A stretch of DNA of 40,617 bases from Bacteroidota bacterium (GTDB lineage Bacteria; Bacteroidota; Bacteroidia; Chitinophagales; Saprospiraceae). The stretch covers positions 1-40,617 of the forward strand of contig JBDLWG010000426.1 of assembly GCA_039804385.1 (NCBI GenBank). The letters are read 5' to 3'. Within the stretch, counting starts at the first letter, position 1. Each line of letters begins with the position of its first letter. The position numbers and the translations under genes were made by a program. The notes under the pieces were generated by a model. The model was given only the letters and a program-made list of their open reading frames with translations, did not search any database and had not been told where the DNA came from. Shown here in pieces: positions 3,911 through 34,572 of the stretch.

Positions 3911-3995
3911 TTTGCAGATTATGATACCATTGGAACGCGGATAATGCGTTCCAATAGTGTCCATTTAAGTAGTTAAAATTTAAATACCCGACAAC

Positions 3996-4028
3996 AACGT
4001 TTGGAGGGTTTTAAACCCTCCAAACGTT
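3996..4028. repeat. REP-like hairpin, TTTGGAGGGTTT-AAACCCTCCAAA family (copy 1)
   Basis: AACGTTTGGAGGGTTTTAAACCCTCCAAACGTT lies between convergent genes. It probably acts as a bidirectional terminator. Confidence 0.7.
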
Positions 4029-4051
4029 ATACTATCTTGAAAATCAACTAC

Positions 4052-5155
4052 TTATTCAAATAATATATTATAATTTGTCGTTCTGCCACCTGCATCTTCT
4101 TTTTTCAATATCTTTTTTTGGATTAAATCTTGAATATCGCGCAATGCCGTGTCATTAGAACTTTTTGTCATTTTAGCCCATTTCGCCGCCGTTAATTTCC
4201 CTTCAAAAACGCCCAAAAGTTTGTTCAACATCATTATTTGGCGTTGATTGAGGATGGTCTTAGCCTGTTTATCCCAGAAACGCGCTTTTTGCAAAACCCG
4301 ATTCAAAATAACCTCACTGTCTTGCAAGGCGATGTTTAGACAGGCCAAAAACCATAAAAGCCATTCGGTTAGATCCAAATCACCCTTTTGCGTTTTTTCC
4401 AAAATCTGGTAATATTGTTTGCGTTGCAACTGAATTTGAGCCGACATACTGTAAAAACGTTGCAAAACACCATCTGCTTTGGACAATTGCATATCCGCAA
4501 TCGCCCGCGCCATCCGTCCATTCCCATCCTCAAAAGGATGAATCGTCACAAACCAAAGATGCGCAATGCCTGCCTTTAAAATCGGATCCAGTACCTGTGT
4601 TCCATTAAACCATTGCAAAAAAAGACTCATTTCGGATTCCAATCTATCGGCAGCAGGGGCTTGAAAATGCACTTGCTCCTGCCCGAATGCGCCCGAAACG
4701 ACTTGCATCGCGCCCTTTTCATCTTTTCGCCACTGTGCAACTGCTATTTTATACATGCCACTTCTGCCTGTCGGGAACAATGCCGCATGCCAATCGAACA
4801 ACCGTTCACTCGTCAAGGGGCTTTGAGTGTTTTGAGTTGCGTCCAACATCATTTGCACGACTCCTTCGATATGCCTATCCGAAGGAATCAAACCATGAAT
4901 TTCCATACCCAATTGCCGCGCAATCGAAGAACGTACTTGCTCAGGTTGCAAAAATTGCCCTTCAATTTCATTGGTTTTGACAATATCGACCGTCAATGTT
5001 TCCAAAAAAGCCTCTTGTTGGAAGGCAAAACCAAGCATTGACATCTTGCTAATGAGTTTTCCTTGCAAATAGCGGACCGTACTTAATGGCGTAATCAAGG
5101 CATTATTGTCCCATGAAAAAGTTGCCCAATTTTTTTGTTGATGAATGTAGCGCAT
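4052..5155 (-). CDS. Fic family protein (class II, auto-inhibited AMPylase-type) with C-terminal wHTH-like tail
   Basis: Fic active-site motif HPFEDGNGRMARA. There is an upstream inhibitory-helix motif [S/T]xxxE[G/N] = TNEIEG. The N-terminus MRYIHQQKNWATFSWDN is typical of Fic proteins with an N-terminal DUF4172-type domain. The track ORF extends to 5224, but that extension is encoded by a palindromic hairpin. Confidence 0.85.
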   Translation of the reverse strand: MRYIHQQKNWATFSWDNNALITPLSTVRYLQGKLISKMSMLGFAFQQEAFLETLTVDIVKTNEIEGQFLQPEQVRSSIARQLGMEIHGLIPSDRHIEGVVQMMLDATQNTQSPLTSERLFDWHAALFPTGRSGMYKIAVAQWRKDEKGAMQVVSGAFGQEQVHFQAPAADRLESEMSLFLQWFNGTQVLDPILKAGIAHLWFVTIHPFEDGNGRMARAIADMQLSKADGVLQRFYSMSAQIQLQRKQYYQILEKTQKGDLDLTEWLLWFLACLNIALQDSEVILNRVLQKARFWDKQAKTILNQRQIMMLNKLLGVFEGKLTAAKWAKMTKSSNDTALRDIQDLIQKKILKKEDAGGRTTNYNILFE

Positions 5156-5184
5156 GTTCTTTTTTTTAATGCGGCAAATATACG

Positions 5185-5217
5185 CCTTAATCTCCGCAAA
5201 ATTTGCGGAGATTAAGG
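5185..5217. terminator. perfect 16-bp-stem hairpin separating the SRPBCC gene from fic
   Basis: The sequence is CCTTAATCTCCGCAAA-A-TTTGCGGAGATTAAGG, immediately 3' of the SRPBCC stop codon. Confidence 0.55.
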
Positions 5218-5227
5218 GATTCATTCG

Positions 5228-7348: not shown

Positions 7349-8047
7349 TCAAATACTTTTATTTTTAATATTTTTATTAAGCTCCGCACAAAACGCCAAA
7401 AAATAAGCAAAAGATGGAATGTCATTTGTTTTTACCGTTCTTTGGATTAATTGATGTAAATATGCTTTTTCTGTAACGCTTCGAGGATTTTTCTTTGTAT
7501 ATTGAATATTGCGTTCAGATAATAGTTCTTTCAAATAACATTCGTGAAATTGGGCTGTTGTTTCAAATTCATCAAAATTAGGCATCCGTTCAGGGTCTTG
7601 TTTAGACACATCATAAAAATTTATGTATGTACGTAAATCAGGGCTATGTGGATTTCTTTTGAAAACTTTTGTATTGCCCAAAAGCCATGTTTCAATACAT
7701 TTATTTTGAATGATTAGGATAAATTGAGTTTTTTCCATAAGCACAACCCTTTGCGAAGTCATAAAATCCATCACTTCCTGTTTCCGTTCTTCAACAGAAG
7801 CCTCATCCGAATCCAGACAGATTACAAAATAATCGAAATTACCCATCTCATTCACATCACAAATGGCATTCGTAAGATGATTGTGAAGCAAAGACGGGAA
7901 CCCATTACCACTAAACATATAATAGTTATTGGAGACCGCTTTATGAGGGTCATCCACTTCCATTAAGAGTGGAACCAGTTCAGCAAGCCATTTAGGATAG
8001 ACTTTTTTCTCGGTTCTCTTGCCTTCTACTAAAAAATACACGTTCAT
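7349..8047 (-). CDS. RloB-like / Toprim-like protein (AbiLii-like partner of the upstream ATPase)
   Basis: N-terminal FLVEGKRTEKKVY matches the EGxxTE pattern of RloB. Also has an acidic DxD (ICLDSDE, D79/D81) and QNKCIETWLLGN, which resembles the RloB SNPcFElWlLlH segment. Its start overlaps the ATPase stop codon in an ATGA. Confidence 0.7.
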   Translation of the reverse strand: MNVYFLVEGKRTEKKVYPKWLAELVPLLMEVDDPHKAVSNNYYMFSGNGFPSLLHNHLTNAICDVNEMGNFDYFVICLDSDEASVEERKQEVMDFMTSQRVVLMEKTQFILIIQNKCIETWLLGNTKVFKRNPHSPDLRTYINFYDVSKQDPERMPNFDEFETTAQFHECYLKELLSERNIQYTKKNPRSVTEKAYLHQLIQRTVKTNDIPSFAYFLAFCAELNKNIKNKSI

Positions 8048-9201
8048 TGTTGTTCGGTACCTGTTTGATAGGCTTCTAATTGCATTAATTGCATAAATGC
8101 ATCATGCTTAGATTTCCCCAAATTAAATTCGGAAGCGTTATGCGTGCGCACCACACCTGCATTTCGAGTCACTAATTTCCAATTATCAAAATGAATATTA
8201 TTGATAATATACGGATGATGACTCGTTAAAATGAATTGCAATTTCCGTTTCGATTTGAGCATATCGCTTGTCAATTCATCAATACAATTGATGCCTAAAC
8301 TGTTTTCAAATTCATCAATCAGAAAAACAGTTCCTTCTGAACACAAATAGAGTTCGCTGATATGCATAAGCGTTCGATACATGCCCGATGAAATCCTATT
8401 TTGCTGAATCCACTTATCAACGCCCGCCTCTTTGATTTGCAAAAAAGGATATTCCTTGAAAAAATCAGGCATATCTACATCTCTAACCTCTAAGGGAGCT
8501 ACTTTCAAATCCGTCACTTGTGGAAAAATAGCTATAAATCGCTCTTTGATAATATTAAATAATTTTTTATCTATCTTAGCAATTAGAAAAAGTTTTAGAC
8601 TGGTTTCCAAATTGCCTTCTTGGATTTTAGCTATTGTATTATATTTTTTTGCCAATTGATTCGCATTCAGCATCATTACTCGAAACGTTCCCGACGCTTG
8701 CATCGAATTAGATTGCTCACTAAATGACAGTTGATTCAAACCTAAATGAGCTGGCTCAATCAGATTTTCGGCTTTTAGCAAATTAAGCACGCTTTCATAT
8801 TGTGAAAGTTTAATGGTTTCTTTACCCTCAAATATGATTTTACCTGCATCTCTGTCAATAATTTGTTTGCCATTTCTAAACAATTTTTCAAAAACGATTT
8901 TGGGTTTGTCTTTTTGTTTTTCATCATCGTCATCATCTGCAAAAAAAATAGATGTATCTTTCACTTGAAAAGCACCTTCCCAAATATAATTTTCATCATG
9001 AATTGTTTGAAAATCAAAACGCCATTGAACTCCATTGATAGATTTCCCAGAACTTATCTCATGAATCGCCATAATAGCCCGAAGTATCTGCGTTTTACCA
9101 ACGCCAGATGCACCAACCAAAAGCGTGAGTTTTTTGAGTTCAAAAGGCTCTAAACGCCACCCACGAGATTTGTCTTCAAATTGAATACTATTAATTTTCA
9201 T
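8044..9201 (-). CDS. AAA_15/AAA_21-type ABC-like ATPase (RloA/AbiLi-like)
   Basis: Walker A GASGVGKT (K36), Walker B/D-loop VFLIDEFENSLG and an H-loop-like ILTSHHP. Translationally coupled to the RloB-like gene. Confidence 0.75.
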   Translation of the reverse strand: MKINSIQFEDKSRGWRLEPFELKKLTLLVGASGVGKTQILRAIMAIHEISSGKSINGVQWRFDFQTIHDENYIWEGAFQVKDTSIFFADDDDDEKQKDKPKIVFEKLFRNGKQIIDRDAGKIIFEGKETIKLSQYESVLNLLKAENLIEPAHLGLNQLSFSEQSNSMQASGTFRVMMLNANQLAKKYNTIAKIQEGNLETSLKLFLIAKIDKKLFNIIKERFIAIFPQVTDLKVAPLEVRDVDMPDFFKEYPFLQIKEAGVDKWIQQNRISSGMYRTLMHISELYLCSEGTVFLIDEFENSLGINCIDELTSDMLKSKRKLQFILTSHHPYIINNIHFDNWKLVTRNAGVVRTHNASEFNLGKSKHDAFMQLMQLEAYQTGTEQQ

Positions 9202-9247
9202 GATTTTGCTATTTTAAAAGCACAAAGTTAGGTTGTTTTCTCTTTTT

Positions 9248-9930: not shown

Positions 9931-11259
9931 TTAAATTTGTGATGCATAGCGTTTCGCTTTGACAAAAGCACTGAATCGTTCCATCGCTACTTTCAAATCG
10001 GATTTTGAAATATATGGGAAAACCATTCTAAATTGTCCCTGTTTGGTGTGTCCAAAACCAGCTCCGGGCGTGAGCAAGATGCCTGTACCGCGATAAAAAG
10101 CTGTCCAAAAAGCCACTTCTGCTTCGGGCGTATTGGATTCTAAAAATTCGGATAAATCCAACCAAACAAATAAACTCCCATACGATGGCACATAAGGCAA
10201 TTTTAAATTTTTCAAATATCGAACTACCACCACATAAGATTCGGTCAAAGCGCGTTGATTGCGTCGAATGTAATCATCCATAAAATCGTCATCTTCCATC
10301 AACATTTGCAACAACCATTGCGTATGATTGGAAATCGTATGTCCTAAATTAATATTTTGATACGCTTTTATAAACGTTTCGTTGTGGGAATAAACCAATC
10401 CAACTCTAAATCCAGAAATCCCAAAATCTTTCGATAAGGCATACCAATAATGCAAATACGGGCTTTTTTTAAGCTCCATTAGTTGCGCAAATGATTGAAA
10501 ATCAATTCTTTTCGCATAATCATTTGCAATTTCGGGATGATGCGTATTGATTAACGATAAGCCATAAATCTCATTGACGACCAAATGAATTTCTTTTGAA
10601 ATGCACCAATCCGCGATTTTTTCTAATTGTGCCGTTTCATAAATGCCACCTGTTGGATTATCAGGATGGGTCAAAACCAACATTTTAAAACATTTTCCTG
10701 CTTTTTGAAGGTCTGCAAGGGCTTTTTCTAAGTGTGGAATATCCAGCAATAGTCCATTTTGAAGGTCTGCCAACTCATGATGCGTAATTAAATCATATCT
10801 TTCTAATCCAGATATACTGCCAATATCGTTTTTATAAACAGGATAACAAGGCGCGGGAAAGACCGCTACATCACCTGCATCGCCGAGAATAAACGCAGTC
10901 ACTTCAATCACGCCTGTTGCGCCCGGCGAAATCCCCATTTTATCAGGGTCAATCGGGCATTTTGTTAAAAATTTGGATAAAAAATGCGCCAATGCCTTCC
11001 TAAATGGCGGCAAACCCAAAGTGGAAGTATAGCCCGCAACCCAATCTGGAATCGGTTGCGTCCTTGAAATGCTTTCCAATTTCGCTTTCAACATCGCCCA
11101 ACTCAACTTATTTTCAGCTACATTGAGGGGGAAACCGCCATTTGGATTGTCATGTTCATGGTAAATATTTTCAATTGCCTCAAAATAGAGGTTCAAATCG
11201 ACGCGCATCACCGTTTCGGATGCTTTTTCGCCGCGTTTCGAGAGGGTAATCGGATTCAT
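9931..11259 (-). CDS. PLP-dependent class I/II aminotransferase, ACC-synthase-like subfamily
   Basis: NVAENKLSW near the N-terminus, NPDNPTGG, and the PLP-lysine motif SKDFGISGFRVG. Confidence 0.85.
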   Translation of the reverse strand: MNPITLSKRGEKASETVMRVDLNLYFEAIENIYHEHDNPNGGFPLNVAENKLSWAMLKAKLESISRTQPIPDWVAGYTSTLGLPPFRKALAHFLSKFLTKCPIDPDKMGISPGATGVIEVTAFILGDAGDVAVFPAPCYPVYKNDIGSISGLERYDLITHHELADLQNGLLLDIPHLEKALADLQKAGKCFKMLVLTHPDNPTGGIYETAQLEKIADWCISKEIHLVVNEIYGLSLINTHHPEIANDYAKRIDFQSFAQLMELKKSPYLHYWYALSKDFGISGFRVGLVYSHNETFIKAYQNINLGHTISNHTQWLLQMLMEDDDFMDDYIRRNQRALTESYVVVVRYLKNLKLPYVPSYGSLFVWLDLSEFLESNTPEAEVAFWTAFYRGTGILLTPGAGFGHTKQGQFRMVFPYISKSDLKVAMERFSAFVKAKRYASQI

Positions 11260-11263
11260 ATTT

Positions 11264-13042
11264 TTATTTATCTATCCATAATTTATGATTTGGAGAAAAG
11301 ACCGCAATTGCGTCTTCAGCAATATTTTCAATGGTTAACTCATCCGTTCTACCAAAATTCCCTTTTAATTCTCCTTCCTCAATCATCGTTACAATATACT
11401 GAAATCGAACGCCCTGTTGTTGCAAAGTGGCAACAAAATGATACAATGCAACAAATTGAGATTTATCCATGCCATCAAAAATGCCATCATGGAGCAAAAA
11501 GTGAGGAATTTTAATACTTTGACTAATTGCATGAAACATTATTGCTATGTCATATACCAAAGTCCGTCCTTTATTCCAACCTTTGGATTCATCTTTATCA
11601 AAAGAAATATCTATTTTAATTTTATCGATGCTATCTTTGGAGGTAATTGAAAAACCAGAGCTTTGACTATGTGGGTAAAGTTGGTTATAAACTTCCGAAA
11701 ATATTTTTTCAAACCCATTGATATTGTCTTGAATACCATTGATAAAAGCATTCATTTTTAAACTAATATCAGCATCTCGCTTCTTATAAGAAAGTTTTTC
11801 TAATTCTAAATCTTTAAACATTTTGATTCTACTTTCTAAATGGGCATACTCTTGTTCTCGCGCTGCCAAATAATAGAAAGCCTGTGTCAAATCGGTAAAT
11901 GCTTCCTTCGATTTTAACAATAAAAAAAAATCGCGCCGTTGTTTATCCAAAACTTGTATTTTCTTTTCATTGGTTTGAACCTCCATTTCGAGTGTTTGTA
12001 TCTCTAATTTTAAAAATTCTTCTCTGGATTGTGCCAATTTTTTTCTAAAATCAATCGCTTCTATTAATGAATGTTGTACAATTTGACTTAATTGCTCATT
12101 TAACTCCTTATAAAGTTTTCCAATATCTCGAATGGTATTTTCACTAAGTACATCTTTCAATTCAAAACTCTCTTTGTAAGTTGTAATTTTTTTTTGATTC
12201 CAAAAATTCTGTTCCGACAATGCTTTTATTTGTCCTGTTAGGTTATTCAGTTCTACTTCTACGTTTTTATGATGTTCTGCCAATTTAAAAGCATCAATAG
12301 CGATTTTACTCTTTTTAATATCATTTTTTAATTTACTTAATTGACTATCAACCTGTTTTATATCTAAATTATAATTCTTTTCAATAAATTTGCGGATTTG
12401 AATCAGAGCCGTTTGTCGTTCATGAACTTCTTTTTGAAGCTCAAAATTTTCGTAAAGTAAGGTATTATCCAACCCCAAAAGTAAAAAATGATATGGATTG
12501 AGTTCACATAATTTGCTTGTCGGTATAAAATGGATCGGATCCGTAAATTCCCCTTTCGCTTTTTTGTGGACTTTAAGAAAAAAAGCCATGAAATTCCGAT
12601 ACCATTTTTCTAATGCAACTCCTTCATAAGCACTATTCTTAAACATCAATTGAAAAAGAAACGATTTTGCATCTTTTAAAAACAGTTGGTTCAAACTATT
12701 ATTTAAACCAATAAGCACTTCTTGTGAAGTCAGCACATTTCTTTTAATCATATAAAGATTATCATCCACTTCAAACTCCAAAACAATTAGATATTTTTCT
12801 AATCTATTTTTTTCTTTATATAATCTTGAATTTTTAGTACTAAAATCCGCTAATAAACAAAAATCTATTAAATCCGCTACCGTTGATTTTCCCAAACCAT
12901 TTAAAGGCTCTTTGCTATCACTTTTATCTTTTTTACCAAAAATAAAGTTAAAACCTTCCTTAAAGACAATCGTGTGAGGATGTTCTCGTTTGCCAGAACG
13001 GAACAATCCAAAGGGTTCACTATAAAGTCTTTTCAGAAACAT
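11264..13042 (-). CDS. coiled-coil ABC/SMC-like ATPase (DUF2326-like; ABC-3C ATPase component)
   Basis: N-terminal P-loop PLNGLGKST (K52). A heptad-rich K/E/L/Q insert of about 250 aa follows. The C-terminal head half carries HFLLHDGIFDGMD (Walker B/D-loop, about aa 514-526). Its start shares one nt with the stop of the 76-aa ORF (TAATG). Confidence 0.75.
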   Translation of the reverse strand: MFLKRLYSEPFGLFRSGKREHPHTIVFKEGFNFIFGKKDKSDSKEPLNGLGKSTVADLIDFCLLADFSTKNSRLYKEKNRLEKYLIVLEFEVDDNLYMIKRNVLTSQEVLIGLNNSLNQLFLKDAKSFLFQLMFKNSAYEGVALEKWYRNFMAFFLKVHKKAKGEFTDPIHFIPTSKLCELNPYHFLLLGLDNTLLYENFELQKEVHERQTALIQIRKFIEKNYNLDIKQVDSQLSKLKNDIKKSKIAIDAFKLAEHHKNVEVELNNLTGQIKALSEQNFWNQKKITTYKESFELKDVLSENTIRDIGKLYKELNEQLSQIVQHSLIEAIDFRKKLAQSREEFLKLEIQTLEMEVQTNEKKIQVLDKQRRDFFLLLKSKEAFTDLTQAFYYLAAREQEYAHLESRIKMFKDLELEKLSYKKRDADISLKMNAFINGIQDNINGFEKIFSEVYNQLYPHSQSSGFSITSKDSIDKIKIDISFDKDESKGWNKGRTLVYDIAIMFHAISQSIKIPHFLLHDGIFDGMDKSQFVALYHFVATLQQQGVRFQYIVTMIEEGELKGNFGRTDELTIENIAEDAIAVFSPNHKLWIDK

Positions 13043-13272
13043 TATTTTTTTAATTTAATTGTAAAATTTTGTATATCAATAATTTGGGTTAACCACAAAA
13101 AAGTCAACGCATTATAATATTGATTTAATGAAATTTCTTTTTGAAAACGTTGCTTGATATGTTGAAACAAAGTTTCAATATTATAGTCTTTTTTTTTCAA
13201 AGACGCTATAATATTTGCCCCTACTACCATGGTACATTTGTGTAGGTGCTCATGCTTGTTCGGTATAAACAT
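13042..13272 (-). CDS. 76-aa helical adaptor (ABC-3C middle-component-like)
   Basis: Small ORF wedged between the effector (2-nt gap) and the ATPase (1-nt overlap). Its size and position match the middle component of ABC-3C systems and LmuC/DdmB of Lamassu. Confidence 0.6.
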   Translation of the reverse strand: MFIPNKHEHLHKCTMVVGANIIASLKKKDYNIETLFQHIKQRFQKEISLNQYYNALTFLWLTQIIDIQNFTIKLKK

Positions 13273-13274
13273 AG

Positions 13275-14324
13275 CTAAAATAAAGATAACTGTTTTTCTT
13301 CTATTGTTTTTTCACCAATGTAACAAAATTCAAAGAAACAAAATATAATTGCTTTAGCATTCGCTTGATAATGAGGATTCAATCGTTTATGCGCTTGCAA
13401 AAGCCCAAGACTCAGTAATTCAACCCACTTAACGTCTTGAATCGGCGTTTCAGGGTCTGTAGTTCCTCGAATTTGACAATAATTTTGTTGTATAATTTCT
13501 TTTAAATCAATAATTTTACTCTCTTCGTCCAATATTGAAAGATAATTATTCACCAATTGCTGTTTATCCCAAGTATTGATAATCATTTCCGATACTCGTT
13601 TTCGTTGCGGTTCTGGAAAATTGATAGGTACTTTAACTTTCAATTTGGTGAACGCAAGGGAAATAGCAATTTCCGAAGCACGGCTCACTTTTTTGGGAGT
13701 ATTCTCTAATAAATGGTCAATAATATCGTCAATAATGCCTAAATCTGCTATTGAATCGTCCAAACCACTATAACTGACACTCATTTTTTGACTCATGTAA
13801 GTATAGAGCGCCTCTACATAATCGGCTTGCGCATCTTTTAAAAGGGCAGACAAATCACTATGGTCAATAATATGTTTATCTTTGTCAAATTCAAATGATT
13901 TCTTAACCGTTTTATCAAAATCCGCCCTCGGATATGATTTTTTTCCACGATACATCAATACATAGAGGGTATTATAACCCTCTTTTAAACTTTTATTCAT
14001 AAAGCCGCGAATAGAATGATGTATCTTTTCGGAGCTATCTTCGGAAGTGATTTGAACTGCAATTTTCAAATCCCAATCTCCTAAATCTGCGCCCTCATAT
14101 TGAGGTTCATTTGCAGTATTCAACCCTTTTAACTGCCAACCCAAAAAAAGGTTTAACAAACCCCGATAAAATTCTTCAGCATCTTTATTGGAGTCAAAAT
14201 AACCTGCACGATTGGAAAAAGTGGCTCCTCTTTCTAAGGTGTGCAACCATTTAATAATCTCATTTTTATATTCACTTATCCTGTACATGGCAGCAAAGAT
14301 ACTATTTTTGATATAATCAAGCAA
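13275..14324 (-). CDS. putative effector of the three-gene cassette (SMEK-like N-domain + helical C-domain)
   Basis: First gene of the cassette. The N-terminal segment FYRGLLNLFLGWQLKGLN...GADLGDWDLKIAVQITS resembles, from memory, proteins annotated as SMEK-domain. The start is uncertain: TTG at 14324, or ATG at 14288 (MYRISEY). Confidence 0.55.
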   Translation of the reverse strand: MLDYIKNSIFAAMYRISEYKNEIIKWLHTLERGATFSNRAGYFDSNKDAEEFYRGLLNLFLGWQLKGLNTANEPQYEGADLGDWDLKIAVQITSEDSSEKIHHSIRGFMNKSLKEGYNTLYVLMYRGKKSYPRADFDKTVKKSFEFDKDKHIIDHSDLSALLKDAQADYVEALYTYMSQKMSVSYSGLDDSIADLGIIDDIIDHLLENTPKKVSRASEIAISLAFTKLKVKVPINFPEPQRKRVSEMIINTWDKQQLVNNYLSILDEESKIIDLKEIIQQNYCQIRGTTDPETPIQDVKWVELLSLGLLQAHKRLNPHYQANAKAIIFCFFEFCYIGEKTIEEKQLSLF

Positions 14325-14390
14325 TTATTTTAATTGTAAAAAACAAATTTTTTATAATTAAATACTATTTTATAAATTTTGTTTTATATT

Positions 14391-14503
14391 TTTGAATTAG
14401 GAATGAAGGATTTTTAGGAATATAAGGACGAATTGCTTAATTGTTTGCAGAAAAAATCAAGCAATGCATCCTTATATTCCTAAAAATCCTTTATTCCTGA
14501 TTC
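14391..14503. repeat. long inverted repeat, GAATTAGGATTTTTAGGA family (copy a)
   Basis: The arms are GAATTAGGAATGAAGGATTTTTAGGAATATAAGGA (from 14394) and TCCTTATATTCCTAAAAATCCTTTATTCCTGATTC (to 14503), with 2 mismatches in 35. The element ends 3 nt before the stop codon of the upstream membrane-protein gene. Confidence 0.8.
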
Positions 14504-22008: not shown

Positions 22009-22392
22009 CTAAAACTTGCGAATCATTTTGCGAATGCCTTTTTCAATTTCGGTGTAAGGTAGGATTTCTTTGGCGGTGTATAAAATCATAAACGCATAAC
22101 CACCCGATTCTGGTTCAGGCATTAAGTGCTTGATTTTGAATTGGTTATGCAATTGAGTTTGGTGCAAGCGATAGGCTTCACTCACCCGCCGCCGAATGAG
22201 ATTGCGGTCAACAGCCCGTTTAAACGTCTTTTTCGGGACGCTGAAACCGCATTGTACAACGGCGATGTTCGCAGGAATGACAGATTTAGCCCACACCAAT
22301 CGCAACGGATAGCAACTGTAGGATTGCGCGCCCTTGAAAAGTGCCGCAATGATTTTTCGACTTTTGAGCCTTTCGGCTTGTTCGAGCGCCAT
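22009..22392 (-). CDS. rnpA: ribonuclease P protein component
   Basis: 127 aa and basic. RLKSRKIIAALF ... KKTFKRAVDRNLIRRRVSEAYR matches the RnpA RNR motif region. Lies downstream of rpmH. Confidence 0.85.
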   Translation of the reverse strand: MALEQAERLKSRKIIAALFKGAQSYSCYPLRLVWAKSVIPANIAVVQCGFSVPKKTFKRAVDRNLIRRRVSEAYRLHQTQLHNQFKIKHLMPEPESGGYAFMILYTAKEILPYTEIEKGIRKMIRKF

Positions 22393-22402
22393 TCAATTGT
22401 TT

Positions 22403-22561
22403 TTGGAATTAGGATTTTGGGGATTTTTAAATTTTTTTTAGCTGTTCTAACGAATAGAACCTATTTAATTGATACAACCTTTGGAGGGTTTGAAACCCTC
22501 CAAAGGTTTGATAACCAATTAATTTAAAAAAATCTAAAAATCCTAAAAATCCTAATTCAAA
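22403..22561. repeat. composite nested palindrome in the rpmH-rnpA spacer (GAATTAGGATTTT family copy c enclosing a GGAGGGTTTGAAACCCTCC hairpin)
   Basis: Outer arms are TTGGAATTAGGATTTTGGGGATTTTTAAATTTTTT and AAAAAAATCTAAAAATCCTAAAAATCCTAATTCAAA. The inner hairpin AACCTTTGGAGGGTTTGAAACCCTCCAAAGGTT lies at 22476-22508. Confidence 0.8.
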
Positions 22562-22574
22562 TAGCTCAAATCCA

Positions 22575-22730
22575 CTATTTCAAGGATCTTTCATCGGAAA
22601 CGGTTAATTTCCAACGACCTTGAGCGCGGCGGCGCGCTAAAACTTTGCGTCCATTTTTAGTCGCCATACGAGTTCTGAAGCCATGCTTGTTAACTCTTTT
22701 TCTACGGGAAGGCTGAAATGTTCTTTTCAT
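22575..22730 (-). CDS. rpmH: 50S ribosomal protein L34
   Basis: Hand translation of the minus strand gives [51 protein letters not shown] (51 aa). It is below the ORF-track length cut-off, and the L34 signature is canonical. Confidence 0.95.
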
Positions 22731-22839
22731 CGAAACGTATTTTTTAGAATATTTTTTTCAAAAATTGCCCGCAAAGATAATTTTTATCCTGCTAAAAACC
22801 AACTTTTTGAATTATTTTTAATCAAAATTGTCCTTAAAA

Positions 22840-23832
22840 ATGAAAAATTTATGTTTTTTTATGTTTTTAATGCCTTTTTCTGCGATTTGTACTGTCCATT
22901 GCGCCAATCCTAAAATTGTTGCTACGACTTCCATGATTGCAGACATCGCCCAAAACATCGCGGGCAATCGATTGAAAATTGATTGCATCTTGCCGATTGG
23001 CAGTGACCCGCATTTGCATGAACCGACTCCGAAAGATGCGCAAATGGTTGGAGAAGCGCAGTTGGTGTTAGTCAATGGCTTGACTTTGGAAGGTTGGATG
23101 AAAGAATTAATTGAAAATTCGGGTACAAAAGCCAAAATTATCACTTGTACCATAGGCATTGATGCGATTGTGAGCGAACAATTTCACGGGAGCGCAGACC
23201 CACATGCTTGGATGCAAGCGATAAATGGTATTATTTATGCTCAAAATATTTGTAAAGCCTTATCAGAGTTAATTCCTACAGAGTCAGCATTTTATGAAAA
23301 TAATTTAAAACAATACATTCAAAAATTGACGGAATTAGACCAATTTATTCAAAAAGAAATTGCGTCGATTCCTGCGAAACGACGTGTTTTGGTTACTTCA
23401 CATGATGCTTTTCATTACTATGGAGCGCGTTATGGTTTGCAATTGGAAGCCGTACTTGGGACTTCAACAGATGCGGATGTGCAAACTTCGGATATGGTGC
23501 GTTTGGCAAAAGTGTTGGTGACGACAGGCGTTCCCGCATTGTTCATTGAAAGTACGATTAATCCTAAATTGTTACAACAAATTGCGGCAGATAATCATGT
23601 GGTAGTGGGCGGTAAATTGTTCGCCGATTCGCTTGGCGATACCGTCGCAGCAACGTACATCGACCTGCTACGACACAATACAATCGTGATTGCCACCGCT
23701 TTGAAGCAAGATAAAACATTGACAACCAATGATTTGCATGCTATTCAATTACCAAAAGGAGCGTTTAGTTTCTGTTTAATCCTTTTTTTGTTGACAGTCA
23801 GTGGATCCTTTTATAGATTGAGCCGCGTATAA
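22840..23832 (+). CDS. metal (Zn/Mn) ABC-transporter substrate-binding protein, ZnuA/TroA family
   Basis: Metal-ligand segments SDPHLHEPTPKD and ADPHAWM, and SHDAFHYY. The ATG at 22840 gives a signal peptide. The C-terminal tail is hydrophobic (FSFCLILFLLTVSGSF). Confidence 0.8.
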   Translation: MKNLCFFMFLMPFSAICTVHCANPKIVATTSMIADIAQNIAGNRLKIDCILPIGSDPHLHEPTPKDAQMVGEAQLVLVNGLTLEGWMKELIENSGTKAKIITCTIGIDAIVSEQFHGSADPHAWMQAINGIIYAQNICKALSELIPTESAFYENNLKQYIQKLTELDQFIQKEIASIPAKRRVLVTSHDAFHYYGARYGLQLEAVLGTSTDADVQTSDMVRLAKVLVTTGVPALFIESTINPKLLQQIAADNHVVVGGKLFADSLGDTVAATYIDLLRHNTIVIATALKQDKTLTTNDLHAIQLPKGAFSFCLILFLLTVSGSFYRLSRV

Positions 23833-23852
23833 ATAACTGGTAACATGGTTAT

Positions 23853-23938
23853 ACCGTTTGGAGGGTTTGAAACCCTCCAAACGGTTATTATACGAAACAA
23901 GTTTATAGCGTTTGGAGGGTTTCAAACCCTCCAAACGG
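23853..23938. repeat. tandem pair of REP-like hairpins, TTTGGAGGGTTTGAAACCCTCCAAA family (copies 3 and 4)
   Basis: ACCGTTTGGAGGGTTTGAAACCCTCCAAACGGT lies at 23853-23885 and CGTTTGGAGGGTTTCAAACCCTCCAAACGG at 23909-23938. Each is followed by TTATTATACGAAA, giving a 56-bp period. They sit between convergent genes. Confidence 0.85.
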
Positions 23939-23966
23939 TTATTATACGAAATGAGTTAGCTGGGAA

Positions 23967-24353
23967 TTATTGCCGCCTGCTAAATTTTGCCCTCATTTTT
24001 TTCTTAAATTTTTGATATTCAACGTATTGCACTTCTGTGAGGATGGGTTTTAGTTCACCATCTTTCTCTTGGCTGAGTTTTTCCATTTTCGCGCCCGTGC
24101 TTGACCAATCGCCTGTATTCAGTCCTTCTTCGGAAACTTCTTTGCGTTTTTCGGCGTATTTAAGTGCAATGGGAGCAATTTTTTTTGCTTGTTCGCCCGT
24201 CAAACTCAAATCTTTAGTCATCATTTCGACTTCTTTTTCGGCTAATACTTTGGGTTCGGGCATTTTAGGCGCACTGTCTTGTGCGTGTAATGTATTCATT
24301 ATCAATGCAAAACAAGTGCATATAATCGTGAATATTTCTTTAATTCGGTTCAT
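23967..24353 (-). CDS. secreted helical protein with LTxxQ-like motifs (Spy/CpxP-like?)
   Basis: Signal peptide, K/E-rich helical sequence, and LSLTGEQ and LTEVQ motifs. Confidence 0.45.
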   Translation of the reverse strand: MNRIKEIFTIICTCFALIMNTLHAQDSAPKMPEPKVLAEKEVEMMTKDLSLTGEQAKKIAPIALKYAEKRKEVSEEGLNTGDWSSTGAKMEKLSQEKDGELKPILTEVQYVEYQKFKKKMRAKFSRRQ

Positions 24354-24471
24354 TATGAAGTTTTGTTTTTTGTTACGAAATATAATTGGTTACGACAACA
24401 GCGCAAAGAAAAATACAATCTTTTAAATTTCAAGCACTTTTTGAAAATTTGACCATAAAATGACATTTCAG

Positions 24472-24534
24472 ATTTAGGAGTCGGGAAATTTATTTCCCGT
24501 GATTCGCGGGAAATAAATTTTCCGACTCCTAAAT
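24472..24534. repeat. 63-bp palindrome in a divergent promoter region (GTCGGGAAATTTATTTCCC family)
   Basis: ATTTAGGAGTCGGGAAATTTATTTCCCG-TGATTCG-CGGGAAATAAATTTTCCGACTCCTAAAT forms a 28-bp stem with one mismatch. Related single units occur at 20858-20880 and 32200-32220. Confidence 0.8.
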
Positions 24535-24645
24535 TTGTGATTTAAATAAAAACCTATTATATTTGCTTTCTGTCTTTCCCGATTTTGAACGAGAAACAGA
24601 CTTAATCAATTTATTCTTTCACAACAAAATGATAATCAACGTATT

Positions 24646-25407
24646 ATGGGTGCGAAAAAACGCATTGCGGAAACGCCTATCTCGGAGAAAATGACTTCCT
24701 CGAATCAAAAAACGCGCAAACAATGGACTAAAATCAAGGGTGAAAACGCTTGGACGATGTTCAAAGTGATTGCAGAATTTGTAGATGGGTTTGAAAAACT
24801 CAACTCTATCGGACCTTGTGTATCGATTTTTGGCTCGGCACGCACGAAACCTGGCAGTCCTTATTACGAATTGGCAGTGGCGATTGCCCGCAAAATGACG
24901 GACGAAGGTTATGGTGTGATTACGGGCGGCGGGCCTGGCATCATGGAGGCTGGTAATAAAGGAGCAAAATTGAATCAGGGCGTTTCAGTCGGTTTGAATA
25001 TTGATTTGCCGTTTGAGCAACATCATAATCCGTATATTGATGACGATAAAAGCCTTGACCACCGTTATTTTTTCATTCGCAAAGTGATGTTTGTGAAATA
25101 TGCCCAAGCTTTTGTGGTTTTGCCGGGTGGTTTCGGGACGATGGACGAACTTTTTGAGGTTTTGACCTTGATTCAAACTCGAAAAATTACAAAAGTGCCT
25201 GTGATTTTAGTTGGTACGAAATTTTGGACAGGTTTGAAAGATTGGTTTAAAAACATTATGTTTGAACAAGAACATAATATTAGTGAAGCAGACCTTGATT
25301 TATTGCCTATCACGGATGATGTGGAAGAAGTGGCGCGGATTATTGACGCGTTTTACAGTGACCCGAATAATCCTTTCAATATTTTGAAACCCAATTACGA
25401 GTTATAA
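24646..25407 (+). CDS. LOG family (TIGR00730-type) nucleotide phosphoribohydrolase
   Basis: GGGPGIMEA and PGGFGTMDELFE motifs. Confidence 0.85.
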   Translation: MGAKKRIAETPISEKMTSSNQKTRKQWTKIKGENAWTMFKVIAEFVDGFEKLNSIGPCVSIFGSARTKPGSPYYELAVAIARKMTDEGYGVITGGGPGIMEAGNKGAKLNQGVSVGLNIDLPFEQHHNPYIDDDKSLDHRYFFIRKVMFVKYAQAFVVLPGGFGTMDELFEVLTLIQTRKITKVPVILVGTKFWTGLKDWFKNIMFEQEHNISEADLDLLPITDDVEEVARIIDAFYSDPNNPFNILKPNYEL

Positions 25408-25410
25408 ATT

Positions 25411-25445
25411 AAAAAAAGGAATCAAGCATTTGCTTGATTCCTTTT
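25411..25445. terminator. bidirectional hairpin terminator between the LOG and rhomboid genes
   Basis: AAAAAAA-GGAATCAAGCA-TT-TGCTTGATTCC-TTTT, between convergent genes. Confidence 0.75.
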
Positions 25446-25471
25446 CAATTGCTTCATTCCTAATTCAATGC

Positions 25472-26245
25472 TCAAACATCCGTTGAACTCGTGTACCAAG
25501 TCCCGAAATACGGATTGTCATTTTTGCGCGCTTCCCACTCGCGCAACTGTCGTTCTTCCTCTGCTTGTTGTCTTTCAGCAATGGTTTGTTCAAACACATC
25601 GCGGGTGAAAAAATATTGTTTTGCCTCTTCGGTCTGCATATCGCGGGTCAATTCGCTGATTTCCAATTCTTCTTTGTAATAATAGGCTGCAAATATGCCC
25701 ACAAATCCGCCTATCAAATGACTTTGCCAACTAATATGATTGATTTCATTTTCCAATGAAGGTGCAATCCCTTGAAACATGCCGCCATAAATTGATAAAA
25801 CGAGCAATGCCAAAAGGATGGAATACGCGCTTCGCCGAAAAACGCCATTCCAAAATACAAACGATAACATCGCGTACACGACATAACTCGCCCCAATATG
25901 ATAGGCAGGATTTGCAAAAACCCACACTAACAATCCACTTACAAAGTACATTAAGACCATACTCCGTACCGCAACTCGTGGATAAAAATAGAAAATGGCT
26001 AAGGATAAGACGAAAAAAGGGACAGTATTCGCCGCTAAATGCCCCCAACCGCCGTGTAAAAACGGCGCGAAAAGGATGCCGCCCAATCCAATAGGCGTGC
26101 GCGGCAAAATGCCCCAATCGCCTAAATCTAAACGCAAACCGTATTGCGCAATATGTACCAACCAAATTGCCGCTACGAAAAGCAACGGAAATACTAAACT
26201 TTTGGACAAGTGCCGATTTTCGGCGGGGGTCATCGAAGTTGGCAT
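25472..26245 (-). CDS. rhomboid family intramembrane serine protease
   Basis: FLHGGWGHLAANT (HxxxxHxxxN), GASYVVYA (GxSx catalytic Ser) and SHLIGGFVG (catalytic His). Has a charged C-terminal extension. Confidence 0.85.
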   Translation of the reverse strand: MPTSMTPAENRHLSKSLVFPLLFVAAIWLVHIAQYGLRLDLGDWGILPRTPIGLGGILFAPFLHGGWGHLAANTVPFFVLSLAIFYFYPRVAVRSMVLMYFVSGLLVWVFANPAYHIGASYVVYAMLSFVFWNGVFRRSAYSILLALLVLSIYGGMFQGIAPSLENEINHISWQSHLIGGFVGIFAAYYYKEELEISELTRDMQTEEAKQYFFTRDVFEQTIAERQQAEEERQLREWEARKNDNPYFGTWYTSSTDV

Positions 26246-26552
26246 AGGTTATAAGGGCGATTTACATCCGCCTTCTTTTGTTTTTTAAAAACGTTGTTTT
26301 GAAAAAGGTTCTATTGGGTTTTCATTTGAAATTCCAACAAAAATGCACTCTTTTCAACCTTTTCAAAAACAGGAGAAGTGGATATTGTGACAACAATATT
26401 TTCATATCAGACGGCAAAATAATAGTTTTAGTACAAATGGGGTACATTTTTAGAGCCTTTTTTTGTTATATTTTTTTATTGTATGAGCAAAACTTTTTTA
26501 TATCCAAAAACTACCTTTTTGTGGTTATAAAATCCGAATTTAAAAAGTAGGA

Positions 26553-26701
26553 GGACTTTACGTAAGTGTTCGCAAAGTCCCCCATTTTATAGGGACTTTA
26601 CGAACACTTACGTAAAGTCCCTATAAAATGGGGAACTTTACGAACACTTACGTAAAGTCCCTATAAAATGGGGGACTTTACGTAAGTGTTCGCAAAGTCC
26701 C
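26553..26701. repeat. four-unit palindromic repeat array, GGACTTTACGTAAGTGTTCGCAAAGTCC family
   Basis: The units lie at 26553-26580 (forward), 26592-26621 (reverse), 26631-26661 (reverse) and 26671-26701 (forward). They are linked by CCCATTTTATAG / CTATAAAATGGG. The last base abuts the stop codon at 26702. Confidence 0.85.
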
Positions 26702-28351
26702 TTATTCTAAGACAATTTTTCCTTGTTTTCGATGCCCGTTATCATCTTCCAATTGATAAATATAAACACCTCCTACTAGCGTATTTCGTTGAATATCAAT
26801 GCTTTCTCCTCCTAAAAAAGATTGCACGCTTTGCACTTCTCGACCATTCAAATCAAATAATCGCAACCTGCATCGCCCTATCGTTGCTGTATGCCAAGTC
26901 AAAGTCGTTTTATCCGACATGGGATTCGGTGCAATCGTCACTTCCTTACCCACCACAGGCAAATCGACTGCGGCTGTTGGCAAGCCTGTCGTATCGGTCA
27001 AATACATGACGATTAAAACCATCATTTCATCATTAGAAGTGGGTCCGAAATGCACCGCAGTCGTACCATAATTCCGCCAAGTGGCTTGGTGGATAAAACC
27101 AGGATTCAAGGCAATCGGCAAAAAAGGTTCGTAATAACGGATCGGAATATGCCGATAATCAAAACTGGGTGCGGAACAACCTGGAATCCCATTGGAACAA
27201 GCTGCATCATATAACAGTTCCCCTTTTGTTCCATTCGCCAACCGCCGAAAAACTTTATAACCTGTTCCATATTTATGCGTATGCCCCATCACCCCCCAAG
27301 TATAAATCTTCCCTGTCCCTAATTGAAGACTGGCTTCTGCGGTAATCGTCTGGTTATTGGCAGGAATATTCAAATTTGTATTTGCCAAAAGCAAGGAACG
27401 CATTTCCTGCCGCGCCGTTCCCACAGGTTGTGTATAAACATTCACAAAGGCTTCTGCCTTATAAACATGAGTCGCATCGTAATTAATATAATGTGAATTG
27501 AGGTCTAAAACGCGTCCTGCTTCCCATTTGAAAGCGGTTTTAGGAGGCAATCTCAAATCAGTCGGCTCTTGAACGGCAGCTGAAACCCCGACATTGCTAT
27601 GATTGGGGTCTAATCGCAAGCCGTCTGGCACGGCACTTCCACCATTATTGGTAAAATTGTAAATAATAAAGTGGTGGGAATAATTGGCAAACAAAAAGTT
27701 TAAACGATTGACTTCTTTGGTTTGGGTCAAGTTTAATAATTCATGTTTTTGATAATATTCGAGTTCAGACCCTATGCGACCTTGTGGCGCGAGAAAAAAG
27801 GGTCCCATTTTGATTTGAAAACCTTCTGTTGCCGCAGGTGGCGCAGGTGCACCTTGTGGAAAAGCGGCTAAAGCCCGCCCTGTCGTATCGTAATACGCCC
27901 GAACCAACCCTTCTGGAACCGTCGTATTTTGATTTGCACCATATAAAATCCATTGACGGATAAACTCTTTCTCGGTATTGGTCAAACTGATGCCTGAACG
28001 CGGCATACTCGCTCCTTCATTCGCGCCAAGCGATAAAGTTGTTTCTAAACCATTGTTGATTTTATGAAACAAAAAACTCATATCCGCCCGCCCTGGATAC
28101 ACTAATTTGTAATTTTTAGCGGCGGCGGCAGCATTGGAAGGCGTTTTATTCAATAAATTGTTGAAAACGGCGATTTTTTTATTCGCCAGAGTTGCGCCAC
28201 TACCTTCCAAATCCAAATTACCCGAATGCACTGCATTGCTATGGCATGAAACACATTTTGTTTGAAATGTGTTGTAAATGGTATTGAAAACCTGTCCTTT
28301 CGTATCCGAATGGCTACTCCATAATAATATAAATATTAAAACCTTTTTCAT
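26702..28351 (-). CDS. secreted cytochrome c - PHM-like copper monooxygenase fusion with T9SS C-terminal sorting domain
   Basis: Signal peptide and a CVSCH haem-c motif followed by GNLDLEG. The copper-ligand pattern is HH (226-227), H287, HTH (357-359) and DEMM (441-444), with spacing like peptidylglycine alpha-hydroxylating monooxygenase. The C-terminus (IAPNPMSD...GVYIYQL...GKIVLE) is T9SS CTD-like. Confidence 0.65.
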   Translation of the reverse strand: MKKVLIFILLWSSHSDTKGQVFNTIYNTFQTKCVSCHSNAVHSGNLDLEGSGATLANKKIAVFNNLLNKTPSNAAAAAKNYKLVYPGRADMSFLFHKINNGLETTLSLGANEGASMPRSGISLTNTEKEFIRQWILYGANQNTTVPEGLVRAYYDTTGRALAAFPQGAPAPPAATEGFQIKMGPFFLAPQGRIGSELEYYQKHELLNLTQTKEVNRLNFLFANYSHHFIIYNFTNNGGSAVPDGLRLDPNHSNVGVSAAVQEPTDLRLPPKTAFKWEAGRVLDLNSHYINYDATHVYKAEAFVNVYTQPVGTARQEMRSLLLANTNLNIPANNQTITAEASLQLGTGKIYTWGVMGHTHKYGTGYKVFRRLANGTKGELLYDAACSNGIPGCSAPSFDYRHIPIRYYEPFLPIALNPGFIHQATWRNYGTTAVHFGPTSNDEMMVLIVMYLTDTTGLPTAAVDLPVVGKEVTIAPNPMSDKTTLTWHTATIGRCRLRLFDLNGREVQSVQSFLGGESIDIQRNTLVGGVYIYQLEDDNGHRKQGKIVLE

Positions 28352-28418
28352 GCGAAAAAAATTATTTGTAAATAATATGATAATAATGTGTGAATAATTA
28401 TAACAAATGGCACCTCTA

Positions 28419-28555
28419 AGGAACGTGAAATAAATAAAGTATCACTTTATTAAAAACCCGAAAAGAGCGAAAACAAAAATTTTTTTTGCAAAAAAATTTC
28501 TTTTTCGCTCTTTTCGGGTTTTAAAAGTGATACTTTATTTATTTCATGTTCCTAA
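28419..28555. repeat. imperfect palindrome of about 137 bp upstream of the monooxygenase gene
   Basis: The left arm AGGAACGTGAAATAAATAAAGTATCACTTTATTAAAAACCCGAAAAGAGCGAAAA pairs with TTTTCGCTCTTTTCGGGTTTTAAAAGTGATACTTTATTTATTTCATGTTCCT. The centre is A/T-rich. Confidence 0.8.
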
Positions 28556-28693
28556 GTTGATAAGGATTGGATTTACGTTGCGTAAACCCAAAAAATCCAA
28601 GTTTAAAAAAATATCAACTTTTCATTGACTTTTAGCATCCTAATGACTATTAATATATAAACAATCTTTATTCCACTACTCAAATTATTTTGT

Positions 28694-28843
28694 ATGAAAA
28701 AATTATTTTTATTAGCACTATATTTTCTATTGATATTCAATACAAAACACCTTCATTTAACTCATTATCCGAGTTCAAAAAAGATAAATGCTGATTGGGC
28801 AACCGTCCAAGAAGATGCTAAAAGTAAAGCATGGGTCAACTGA
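28694..28843 (+). CDS. possible 49-aa secreted/membrane micro-protein
   Basis: The ATG-initiated ORF reads MKKLFLLALYFLLIFNTKHLHLTHYPSSKKINADWATVQEDAKSKAWVN, with a hydrophobic N-terminus. A canonical plus-strand terminator lies downstream. There is no homology evidence. Confidence 0.3.
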   Translation: MKKLFLLALYFLLIFNTKHLHLTHYPSSKKINADWATVQEDAKSKAWVN

Positions 28844-28896
28844 AATATAAAACGAATTTGAATGTATTAATATTTTTCAATATTGGATTTCTATTT

Positions 28897-28931
28897 GCCT
28901 CATACCGACGCGTAGTATGAGGCTTTTTTTT
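28897..28931 (+). terminator. intrinsic terminator (plus-strand orientation)
   Basis: GCCTCATAC-CGACGCGTA-GTATGAGGC is followed by eight T. The T-run overlaps the helicase stop codon on the opposite strand. Confidence 0.75.
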
Positions 28932-31266: not shown

Positions 31267-31489
31267 TTTGGTATGTTTTTTCTGCACAAATGGAATAAAG
31301 GTACAAAGAAAACAAAAAATTTTGATTTAGATTGTAGGATTTTGTAAAAAATAAGGGATGCGCAAGTCTATTAAGCCTTTTAGTATGGATTTTAAATTGC
31401 TTTTTATTGCTTTATAATTTGGTTAAATCTGCTTTCTCAAATGCGATTGAGGCTATTTATAAAACGATGATTGCACGGCATTTCCCAAT

Positions 31490-33971: not shown

Positions 33972-34109
33972 GTTCAGATAGTTTTGTTTTAAAACATTGG
34001 TTGCGATATAGTTACTGTTAAAAAAACATTTAAAGGTAAATCGAAAGTTTTAATTTCCAAAAATTATTTATCTTTCGGGATTATTTTTTTTAGAATCAAA
34101 TCCTAAGCA

Positions 34110-34562: not shown

Positions 34563-34572
34563 GAATTGAATC

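Follow-up and report, generated by a model that had tools for sequence, protein, structure and literature searches.

A probable ABC-three-component/short-Lamassu-type defence cassette with a SMEK nuclease, an MC6 middle component and a DUF2326 ATPase in an uncultured Chitinophagales lineage

What is the role of a block of three tightly packed, AT-rich genes that lies between housekeeping genes in an uncultured bacterium of the Saprospiraceae (Chitinophagales)? The block is found on contig JBDLWG010000426.1 of assembly GCA_039804385.1, which was analyzed over its full length of 40,617 nucleotides and is referred to here as the window. It encodes an effector, a small middle component and a Rad50/SMC-like ATPase at positions 11264-14324, between an aminotransferase gene and a gene for an MscS-like protein. 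A preliminary description, made from the letters alone, had taken it for an anti-phage or anti-plasmid module of the ABC-three-component (ABC-3C; ABC, ATP-binding cassette) or Lamassu-like kind and had considered it functionally undescribed. ABC-3C systems are said to have been predicted by Krishnan, Burroughs, Iyer & Aravind in 2020, in NAR 48:10045, as cited in PMC10586767. We examined the locus by profile searches, structure prediction and a survey of homologous loci, and we conclude with good confidence that it is a horizontally acquired defence cassette of the ABC-3C/short-Lamassu type. The cassette is a clean and intact example of the subtype that combines a SMEK nuclease, an MC6 middle component and a DUF2326 ATPase.

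The list of open reading frames (ORFs) places all three genes on the minus strand, with a span of 11264-14324. The effector gene and the middle-component gene are separated by 2 nt (13273-13274), and the stop codon of the latter shares 1 nt with the start codon of the ATPase gene (13042, in TAATG), in agreement with the packing seen at the outset. This co-directional and tightly coupled order of effector, middle component and ATPase is the ABC-3C arrangement. The visible AT-richness was likewise borne out by measurement, with a GC content of 0.312 for the cassette versus 0.401 for the remaining window. The GC content at third codon positions shows the same difference, with values of 0.24-0.29 for the cassette genes versus 0.37-0.43 for the aminotransferase, Fur and MscS-like genes. 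The features of the cassette are as follows, in the order of transcription.

14289 to 14393, minus strand: AT-rich non-coding leader, presumed promoter region, within the segment missing from close relatives.
13275 to 14324, minus strand: effector ORF of 349 aa as called, starting with TTG at 14324.
13275 to 14288, minus strand: effector gene (LmuA-like), 337 aa, starting with ATG at 14288.
About 13845 to 14261, minus strand: SMEK_N nuclease domain of the effector, PD-(D/E)xK/Mrr-type, from Pfam and NCBIfam.
About 13278 to 13808, minus strand: helical C-terminal domain (CTD) of the effector, putatively for docking.
13042 to 13272, minus strand: middle-component gene (adaptor, in the position of LmuC), 76 aa, ABC-3C MC6 family.
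11264 to 13042, minus strand: Rad50/SMC-like ABC ATPase gene, 592 aa, DUF2326 (YydD) family.
12887 to 12889, minus strand: Walker A K52 of the ATPase, in the P-loop LNGLGKST.
11678 to 12463, minus strand: helical coiled-coil insert of the ATPase, aa 194-455, from the AlphaFold2 model.
11486 to 11488, minus strand: Walker B D519 of the ATPase, in FLLHD519-G520.

The leader arrived together with the cassette, and its role as a promoter is presumed; neither sigma-70-type consensus matches nor the terminator scan rose above the shuffled expectation. The window yielded no Rfam family and no tRNA. At the other end of the cassette, the ATPase stop codon lies only 4 nt from the ATG of the aminotransferase gene (11259-11264), with no terminator-like site between them. 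Since the spacing is this short and no terminator-like site intervenes, transcription in the strain of the window probably reads through from the inserted cassette into the aminotransferase, a housekeeping gene.

The ATPase was assigned to the DUF2326 family (Pfam PF10088) with an E-value of 1.8e-19 and a score of 70.3 bits, where the cut-off is 28.7, and is by this match an ATPase of the ABC-3C type. It also matched the PADLOC profile PDC-M68B over its full length (3.8e-58). The split ABC head that had been proposed from the sequence is present in the AlphaFold2 model (pLDDT 88, pTM 0.72), where an all-helical insert of about 260 aa (aa 194-455) separates the two halves of the head. The residues invariant across 71 homologues are N48, G51, K52, H518, D519, G520, F522 and D523, and they include the Walker A lysine and the Walker B aspartate to which the proposal had pointed; D519 is contained in the segment HFLLHDGIFDGMD, and the region of aa 516-519 corresponds to 11486-11497 in the window. 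For the family as a whole, the Walker B motif reads hhhHD[G/S/N]. In 125 DUF2326 representatives, the residue that follows this aspartate was Gly in 88, Ser in 21 and Asn in 11, and it was never Glu or Gln. The preceding H518 was nearly invariant in the same set. No CxxC motif indicative of a zinc hook is present in the ATPase. A Foldseek search returned as its top match the chain 9a6c_A (1.3e-22), an integrative model from Bacillus subtilis whose title names YydD and YydB and gives cross-linking mass spectrometry and deep learning as its basis. An SMC head (8e-12), Rad50 (1e-11) and three independent LmuB structures of Lamassu were among the further matches.

The 76-aa protein matched Pfam MC6 (PF20293) with an E-value of 1e-10 and a score of 41.9 bits, well past the cut-off (27.2), and is thereby a middle component of the ABC-3C kind. 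A gene of about 74-80 aa holds the same middle position in nearly all homologous loci. An alignment of 54 MC6 sequences begins at M1, and the N-terminus of the family reads MLIPxKHE. Since the family starts with this motif at its first residue, the 76-aa start is the correct one, and the 62-aa call in a JGI annotation is a truncation. Matches to winged-helix-like domains were weak, with 0.0094 for HTH_12 and 0.1 for the winged helix-turn-helix of Fur. MC3/LmuC is more than twice as large as MC6.

The N-terminus of the effector matched SMEK_N in both Pfam (PF21941, 1.8e-34) and NCBIfam (2.9e-19). With this match, the three families that the preliminary description had named as candidates, namely a DUF2326 ATPase, an ABC-3C middle component and a SMEK domain, were all recovered by profile searches. 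A sequence search of the PDB aligned effector residues 21-159 with chain 26bh_D (E = 3.9e-14), which is the solved Mrr domain of the Mrr-APAZ partner of a prokaryotic Argonaute (pAgo) from Kordia jejudonensis. The top PADLOC match was likewise Argonaute-associated (Aga_REase-PNTD1-PNTD2, 5e-32) and covered only aa 17-182. The homologue alignment showed that E50, D80, Q91, T93, S94 and K100, in the numbering of the 349-aa ORF, are invariant in the effector, and we infer that they fit an active site of the PD-(D/E)xK type. SMEK-APAZ proteins have been reported to mediate DNA cleavage (PMC10810196). The first gene had been described as a 349-aa ORF, and such an ORF exists. However, all 59 of 59 effector homologues are about 337-345 aa long and span 97% of the ORF, and these lengths and this coverage suggest that the gene most likely starts with the ATG at 14288 and encodes 337 aa. 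A Foldseek search with the whole two-domain effector model (pLDDT 77) gave no significant match.

We explored the nature of the remaining C-terminal half by comparing it with the first genes of related loci. The survey comprised 88 loci taken from ATPase-profile scans of viral and metagenome contigs, to which contig look-ups were added. The last ~170 residues of the effector align with the C-terminus of a 290-aa protein of Dyadobacter that has another head (hhalign 99.6%, 5e-24) and with a 191-aa protein of Parabacteroides distasonis that is essentially the CTD alone (hhalign 97%, 6e-11). Downstream of the genes for both of these proteins lie genes for MC6 and DUF2326 proteins. The proposed order of effector, adaptor and ATPase held up in the survey, as a CTD-bearing gene, a middle component of ~75 aa and a DUF2326 gene follow one another in nearly all of the ~70 loci with enough upstream sequence. 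The 65 unique first genes comprised 28 that encode the CTD only, 26 with other heads, 7 with SMEK, 3 without a CTD match and 1 cut by a contig edge. The non-SMEK heads include one Mrr_cat and endonucleases of the Cap4/SduA-like type, which is the type modelled by PDC-M68A; sibling effectors with the same CTD indeed match PDC-M68A at 1e-24 to 5e-35. Matches to Pfam CTD10 (1e-6) came from seven of the surveyed CTD-bearing proteins, and weak matches to CTD11 (0.012) from three SMEK effectors. The effector of the cassette therefore has the ABC-3C build, that is, a variable head (SMEK_N) on a CTD that is common to other-headed and to CTD-only proteins. Such swapping of heads on a fixed CTD is the defining pattern of ABC-3C/Lamassu effectors, and by analogy with these the C-terminal half would be the docking module of the system.

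The survey also yielded observations on individual loci. The CTD-only first genes encode ~170-200 aa without an enzymatic head (L009-L011, L017, L018, L036, L041, L043, L047 and others), and these systems may be equivalent to 'Clade O' of short Lamassu, which lacks effectors (PMC12663957). In one locus (L097, 196-1912), the DUF2326 ATPase is broken up into a pair of ORFs that cover positions 1-165 and 182-558 of the hidden Markov model (HMM); the probable cause is either a frameshift, which would make it a pseudogene, or an error in the assembly. A 95-kb metagenome contig, Ga0209164_1000469, carries two complete cassettes of DUF2326, middle-component and CTD-effector genes about 33 kb apart.

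22018 to 35787 (L083) and 54756 to 68525 (L084) of contig Ga0209164_1000469: the loci of the two cassettes, each with an effector of 321 aa and a non-SMEK head.

The cassette is an accessory and horizontally acquired element in this uncultured Chitinophagales lineage, as had been suspected, and the case for this comes from close relatives that apparently lack it. The contig of a related metagenome-assembled genome (MAG; contig L001) encodes an aminotransferase with 99% amino acid identity to that of the window and aligns to the window at 94-98% nucleotide identity. Another contig (L111) carries the aminotransferase, Fur and purA genes and starts with the exact reverse complement of one arm of a palindrome that in the window separates the MscS-like gene from the cassette. 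On L111 this arm is found 23 nt before the ATG (nt 40-42) equivalent to the start of a 442-aa aminotransferase; the 445-aa call starts at nt 31. The match between the relatives and the window begins again precisely at position 11264, which is the final nucleotide of the stop codon of the ATPase gene. The contigs that carry the MscS-like gene, from the MAG relative and from five other samples, end within the palindrome just past the MscS-like stop codon. These alignments suggest that close relatives, at ~95% nucleotide identity, have an apparent empty site from which ~3.1 kb, the leader and the three genes, is absent. The adjacency at this site is inferred, because all contigs of the relatives break inside the palindrome.

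The sizes of the sequence clusters point in the same direction, as the 90%-identity clusters contained 2 sequences for the ATPase versus 6 for the aminotransferase. No cassette was present near aminotransferase orthologues at 76-79% identity; these orthologues are weak evidence, because synteny is not conserved at all there. The cassette itself was 99.9% identical in three other samples. A scan of genome contigs with the aminotransferase found one locus, which ends at the cassette boundary, and a first scan of metagenomes with the same protein found nothing.

The palindrome, which forms the upstream boundary of the variable segment and belongs to the host context and not to the system, is located as follows.

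14394 to 14503, no strand: inverted repeat I1, a palindrome of two 53-nt arms (89% complementary) around a 4-nt loop.

Its predicted RNA fold has an energy of -59.5 kcal/mol (z = -13.6), and it matched no Rfam family. Related strains have variant copies of it at the corresponding position, and the contigs of six samples break within it. The palindrome may act as a terminator or insulator, or it may be a hotspot of recombination. We considered and rejected the possibility that it is part of the mobile cassette: its core occurs only in the locus of the same strain, and a variant is present at the empty site. The heptanucleotide TAAAAAT at both ends of the insert was not taken as a target-site duplication, as the DNA is so AT-rich.

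Homologues of the ATPase are spread over Chitinophagales, Cytophagales, Bacteroidales, Desulfobulbaceae and Planctomycetes. Among 1.84 billion sequences, the number of family representatives at 50% identity was 2434 at E <= 1e-3, 1629 at 1e-10 and 747 at 1e-30. The genomes of cultured phages yielded no homologue, and plasmids yielded two distant ones. The nearest foreign relative, with an ATPase 79% identical (L005, 3898-13828), lies inside a type I restriction-modification (R-M) operon, in the order hsdM, cassette, hsdS/hsdR; it is one defence system nested within another. Other copies are found among integrases, a resolvase and IS1 (Ca. Electronema), near HicA (Dyadobacter) and, together with RteC and DUF3876, in a region that resembles a conjugative transposon (P. 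distasonis). An 11-kb mobile element in Clostridium botulinum carries DUF2326 and MC6 as well (PMC10868621). When the 108 large ORFs that neighbour 21 loci were searched against Pfam, the most frequent families were N6_Mtase (9), Eco57I (8), Phage_integrase (7) and Prim-Pol (4). Our assignment is built on what was observed directly at these loci, namely the parts list, the operon coupling, the modularity of the head, the mobile distribution and the neighbourhoods rich in R-M and integrase genes.

How does the cassette compare with systems that are already known? From the ABC-3C systems it shows no substantive difference. The order of effector, middle component and coiled-coil ABC ATPase is the same, the MC6 and DUF2326-type ATPase families match directly, and a variable N-terminal effector head sits on a conserved CTD, with the sole reservation that the CTD of the cassette effector falls below all Pfam CTD models. 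ABC-3C is in turn now regarded as type II Lamassu or as belonging to the Lamassu superfamily (PMC10586767; bioRxiv 10.1101/2025.06.23.660979), and a 2025 classification of Lamassu was seeded with the ABC-3C predictions and named SMEK among the effector types of short Lamassu (PMC12663957). The claim that the cassette is a functionally undescribed system was overstated, because ABC-3C is counted in a superfamily for which cryo-electron microscopy structures of DdmABC and LmuACB have been solved; the mechanism of activation has been published too.

The short Lamassu systems, Vibrio cholerae DdmABC and Salmonella LmuACB (PDB 9hqx, 9uxh), share with the cassette the same three-gene logic and a Rad50-like ATPase of ~600 aa that lacks a zinc hook and has a divergent Walker B motif. 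They also share an effector nuclease of the PD-(D/E)xK superfamily with a docking CTD, a mobile and defence-island context, and the listing of SMEK among their effectors. The components differ in family: DdmABC consists of Cap4 with CTD7, MC3 and a Rad50-like protein (PMC11707656), whereas the cassette consists of SMEK with a CTD10/11-like domain, MC6 and DUF2326. The PADLOC model PDC-M68 is related through its ATPase, PDC-M68B, and through the sibling effectors that match PDC-M68A; it differs in that PDC-M68A models a Cap4/SduA-like head and the effector of the cassette has a SMEK head. YydB-YydC-YydD of B. subtilis includes the namesake of DUF2326, and YydD is the best structural match to the ATPase (TM 0.53), although the two are only 17% identical; a description of YydB/C/D as a defence system was not found in the literature. 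The short pAgo systems with SMEK-APAZ, such as that of K. jejudonensis, have the same SMEK/Mrr-type nuclease head and nothing else in common with the cassette. The effector of the cassette has an ABC-3C-type CTD instead of APAZ, and it would be served by an ABC ATPase sensor instead of an Argonaute. The genes that adjoin it encode MC6 and DUF2326 proteins, and the locus is not a short pAgo SMEK-APAZ system.

The published work on short Lamassu offers a model of how such a cassette might operate. The short Lamassu complex has the composition LmuA1:LmuB2:LmuC1; it binds ends of double-stranded DNA in vitro and the phage replication origin in vivo, and Walker A is needed for its defence (PMC12663957). 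LmuA was proposed to leave the complex upon ATP hydrolysis and to tetramerize via its CTD into a nuclease that degrades DNA non-specifically (PMC12663957). Sequestration of LmuA, sensing of DNA ends and oligomerization of the effector are the common elements of the Lamassu mechanism (PMC12663957; PMC10586767; PMC11707656). All biochemical steps that we propose for the cassette are drawn by analogy from the solved DdmABC and LmuACB complexes. Two copies of the Rad50-like ATPase would pair via their coiled coils, and MC6 and the effector CTD would dock at the head-distal coiled coil and so hold the SMEK nuclease in a monomeric, inactive state. The ATPase heads would survey DNA and sense DNA ends or aberrant replication structures that arise from phages or plasmids. 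ATP binding and a slow, non-canonical hydrolysis, which would depend on the Walker A K52 and on a Walker B motif HDG without the catalytic Glu or Gln, would then free the effector. The freed effector would oligomerize via its CTD to form active PD-(D/E)xK sites, and these may degrade DNA non-specifically, leading to aborted infection or to elimination of a plasmid.

Several results weigh against this assignment and this model. The Walker B motif of the ATPase is HDG, and HD[G/S/N] in the family; FLLHD519-G520 falls outside the short-Lamassu consensus hhhhD[Q/S/T/E] (PMC12663957), with which the family overlaps only in Ser. The PADLOC HMM for LmuB covers only the N-terminal ~135 residues of the ATPase (aa 19-154, 1.8e-11), and in Foldseek the LmuB structures (9hqx_B, 1e-10; 9ux7_A, 2e-10; 9uxh_F, 2e-9) resemble the ATPase no better than Rad50 or SMC do. 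None of the three parts is linked to a solved Lamassu chain at the sequence level: sequence and profile searches of the PDB matched no Lamassu chain with the ATPase and neither LmuC nor any other Lamassu chain with MC6, and a PDB profile search with the CTD-bearing effectors gave no similarity to solved LmuA or Lamassu chains. The effector had no match to PDC-M68A at E <= 1, its own CTD scored below every Pfam CTD model, and the link of this CTD to CTD10 and CTD11 is weak and made only via sibling proteins. The docking geometry assumed above is pure analogy. PDC-M68 is a candidate in PADLOC and not a validated system. Our literature search found no experiment on the DUF2326/MC6/SMEK subtype, and to this extent the statement that the family lacks experimental characterization stood.

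These differences in Walker B, MC6 and the CTD from the solved systems are the reason for which a distinct mechanism is kept in view. We think it unlikely, if worth retaining, that the DUF2326/MC6 clade is a branch of the Lamassu superfamily with a mechanism of its own, in which the ATPase-MC6-CTD core is an ATP-binding switch or a DNA-blocking clamp and the nuclease heads are secondary; the HD[G/S/N] motif, a 76-aa winged-helix-like adaptor unlike LmuC and the ~43% of loci without a head are its basis. Applied to the cassette itself, the corresponding explanation, to which we give a slim chance, would keep the architecture and change the working, with the ATPase, MC6 and the CTD protein as the functional unit and the nuclease head as an option. 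A Walker B aspartate never followed by Glu or Gln and nearly always preceded by H518 in the 125 representatives, 28 of 65 unique first genes with a CTD only, an MC6 of under half the size of MC3/LmuC with no detectable similarity to it, and an ATPase without a zinc hook are all in keeping with this explanation. Regardless, since Haudiquet et al. describe diversified Walker B motifs, loss of the zinc hook, lost components and an effector-less clade in short Lamassu (PMC12663957), the Walker B, zinc-hook and headless traits fit variation that is already known there. Moreover, the nuclease motif set of the cassette's own effector is intact.

The ABC-3C/short-Lamassu defence assignment can also be set against explanations that change the role of the cassette and not its working. 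The cassette might serve mainly in competition among or maintenance of mobile elements, through plasmid elimination or addiction, and not in phage defence. Homologues in integrative islands, in the conjugative-transposon-like region and in the C. botulinum 11-kb element (PMC10868621) lend themselves to this idea, as does the related DdmABC, which eliminates plasmids (PMC10586767). However, the cassette in the window was inserted on its own between housekeeping genes, and mobility genes, a tRNA or an integrase are absent from its surroundings, R-M genes are the commonest neighbours of its homologues, and roles in phage defence and against mobile elements are not mutually exclusive; we consider this explanation improbable. 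That the ATPase is a housekeeping repair paralogue of the SMC/RecN/RecF/SbcC type with two accessory proteins, a reading that the preliminary description had named as one that would refute its own, draws on the Rad50/SMC-like fold and on a Pfam SMC_N match (E = 0.031). That match is weak, with 14 bits against a cut-off of 40, and the NCBIfam search found no RecN, RecF or SMC family. The apparent absence from relatives at ~95% identity, the 2 versus 6 cluster members, the scattered occurrence across phyla, the low GC content and the coupling to a nuclease effector with swappable heads speak against it further, and the explanation is effectively refuted. Two of the conditions under which the preliminary reading would have failed, a housekeeping paralogue and a trio conserved in syntenic position, were checked, and neither refutes it. 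We attach next to no probability to the cassette being what is left of a defence system that is decaying and no longer functions. Such decay is seen nearby and in a homologous locus, as an adjacent AbiL-like module has lost a part in another sample and the ATPase of L097 is split. Yet the three ORFs of the cassette are intact and keep all family-invariant residues, and the copies in three other samples are 99.9% identical to it.

The window contains further genes of the conflict type near the cassette. A second, separate defence-type module is found on the minus strand at 7349-9201, where two genes overlap by 4 nt at a GC content of 0.345. One encodes a 385-aa AAA_21 ATPase (PADLOC AbiLi, 1.6e-22; AriA, 3e-17) and the other a 232-aa RloB/DUF4276-like partner (PADLOC AbiLii, 6.5e-06). 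This AbiL-like pair (window 7356-9247) is wholly missing from L001 and L111, in which Fur is followed directly by purA, and a 545-nt piece of the module (7372-7916) is deleted in sample L003. A gene with DUF4172 and Fic/DOC domains (2.9e-29 and 3.3e-16; ORF 4052-5224, minus strand) lies in a segment of ~1.2 kb (3916-5112) that is missing from L001. With the Fic/DOC segment, the strain-specific insertions that bring in conflict-type genes number three within 10 kb.

The cassette opens no new class of system. It could instead be used to examine whether the activation model of 2025 extends to a complex with a 76-aa adaptor, with a Walker B motif that lacks a catalytic carboxylate or amide, and with SMEK in place of the Cap4 nuclease. 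It further documents that the SMEK nuclease head is common to Argonaute-based and SMC-like sensors.

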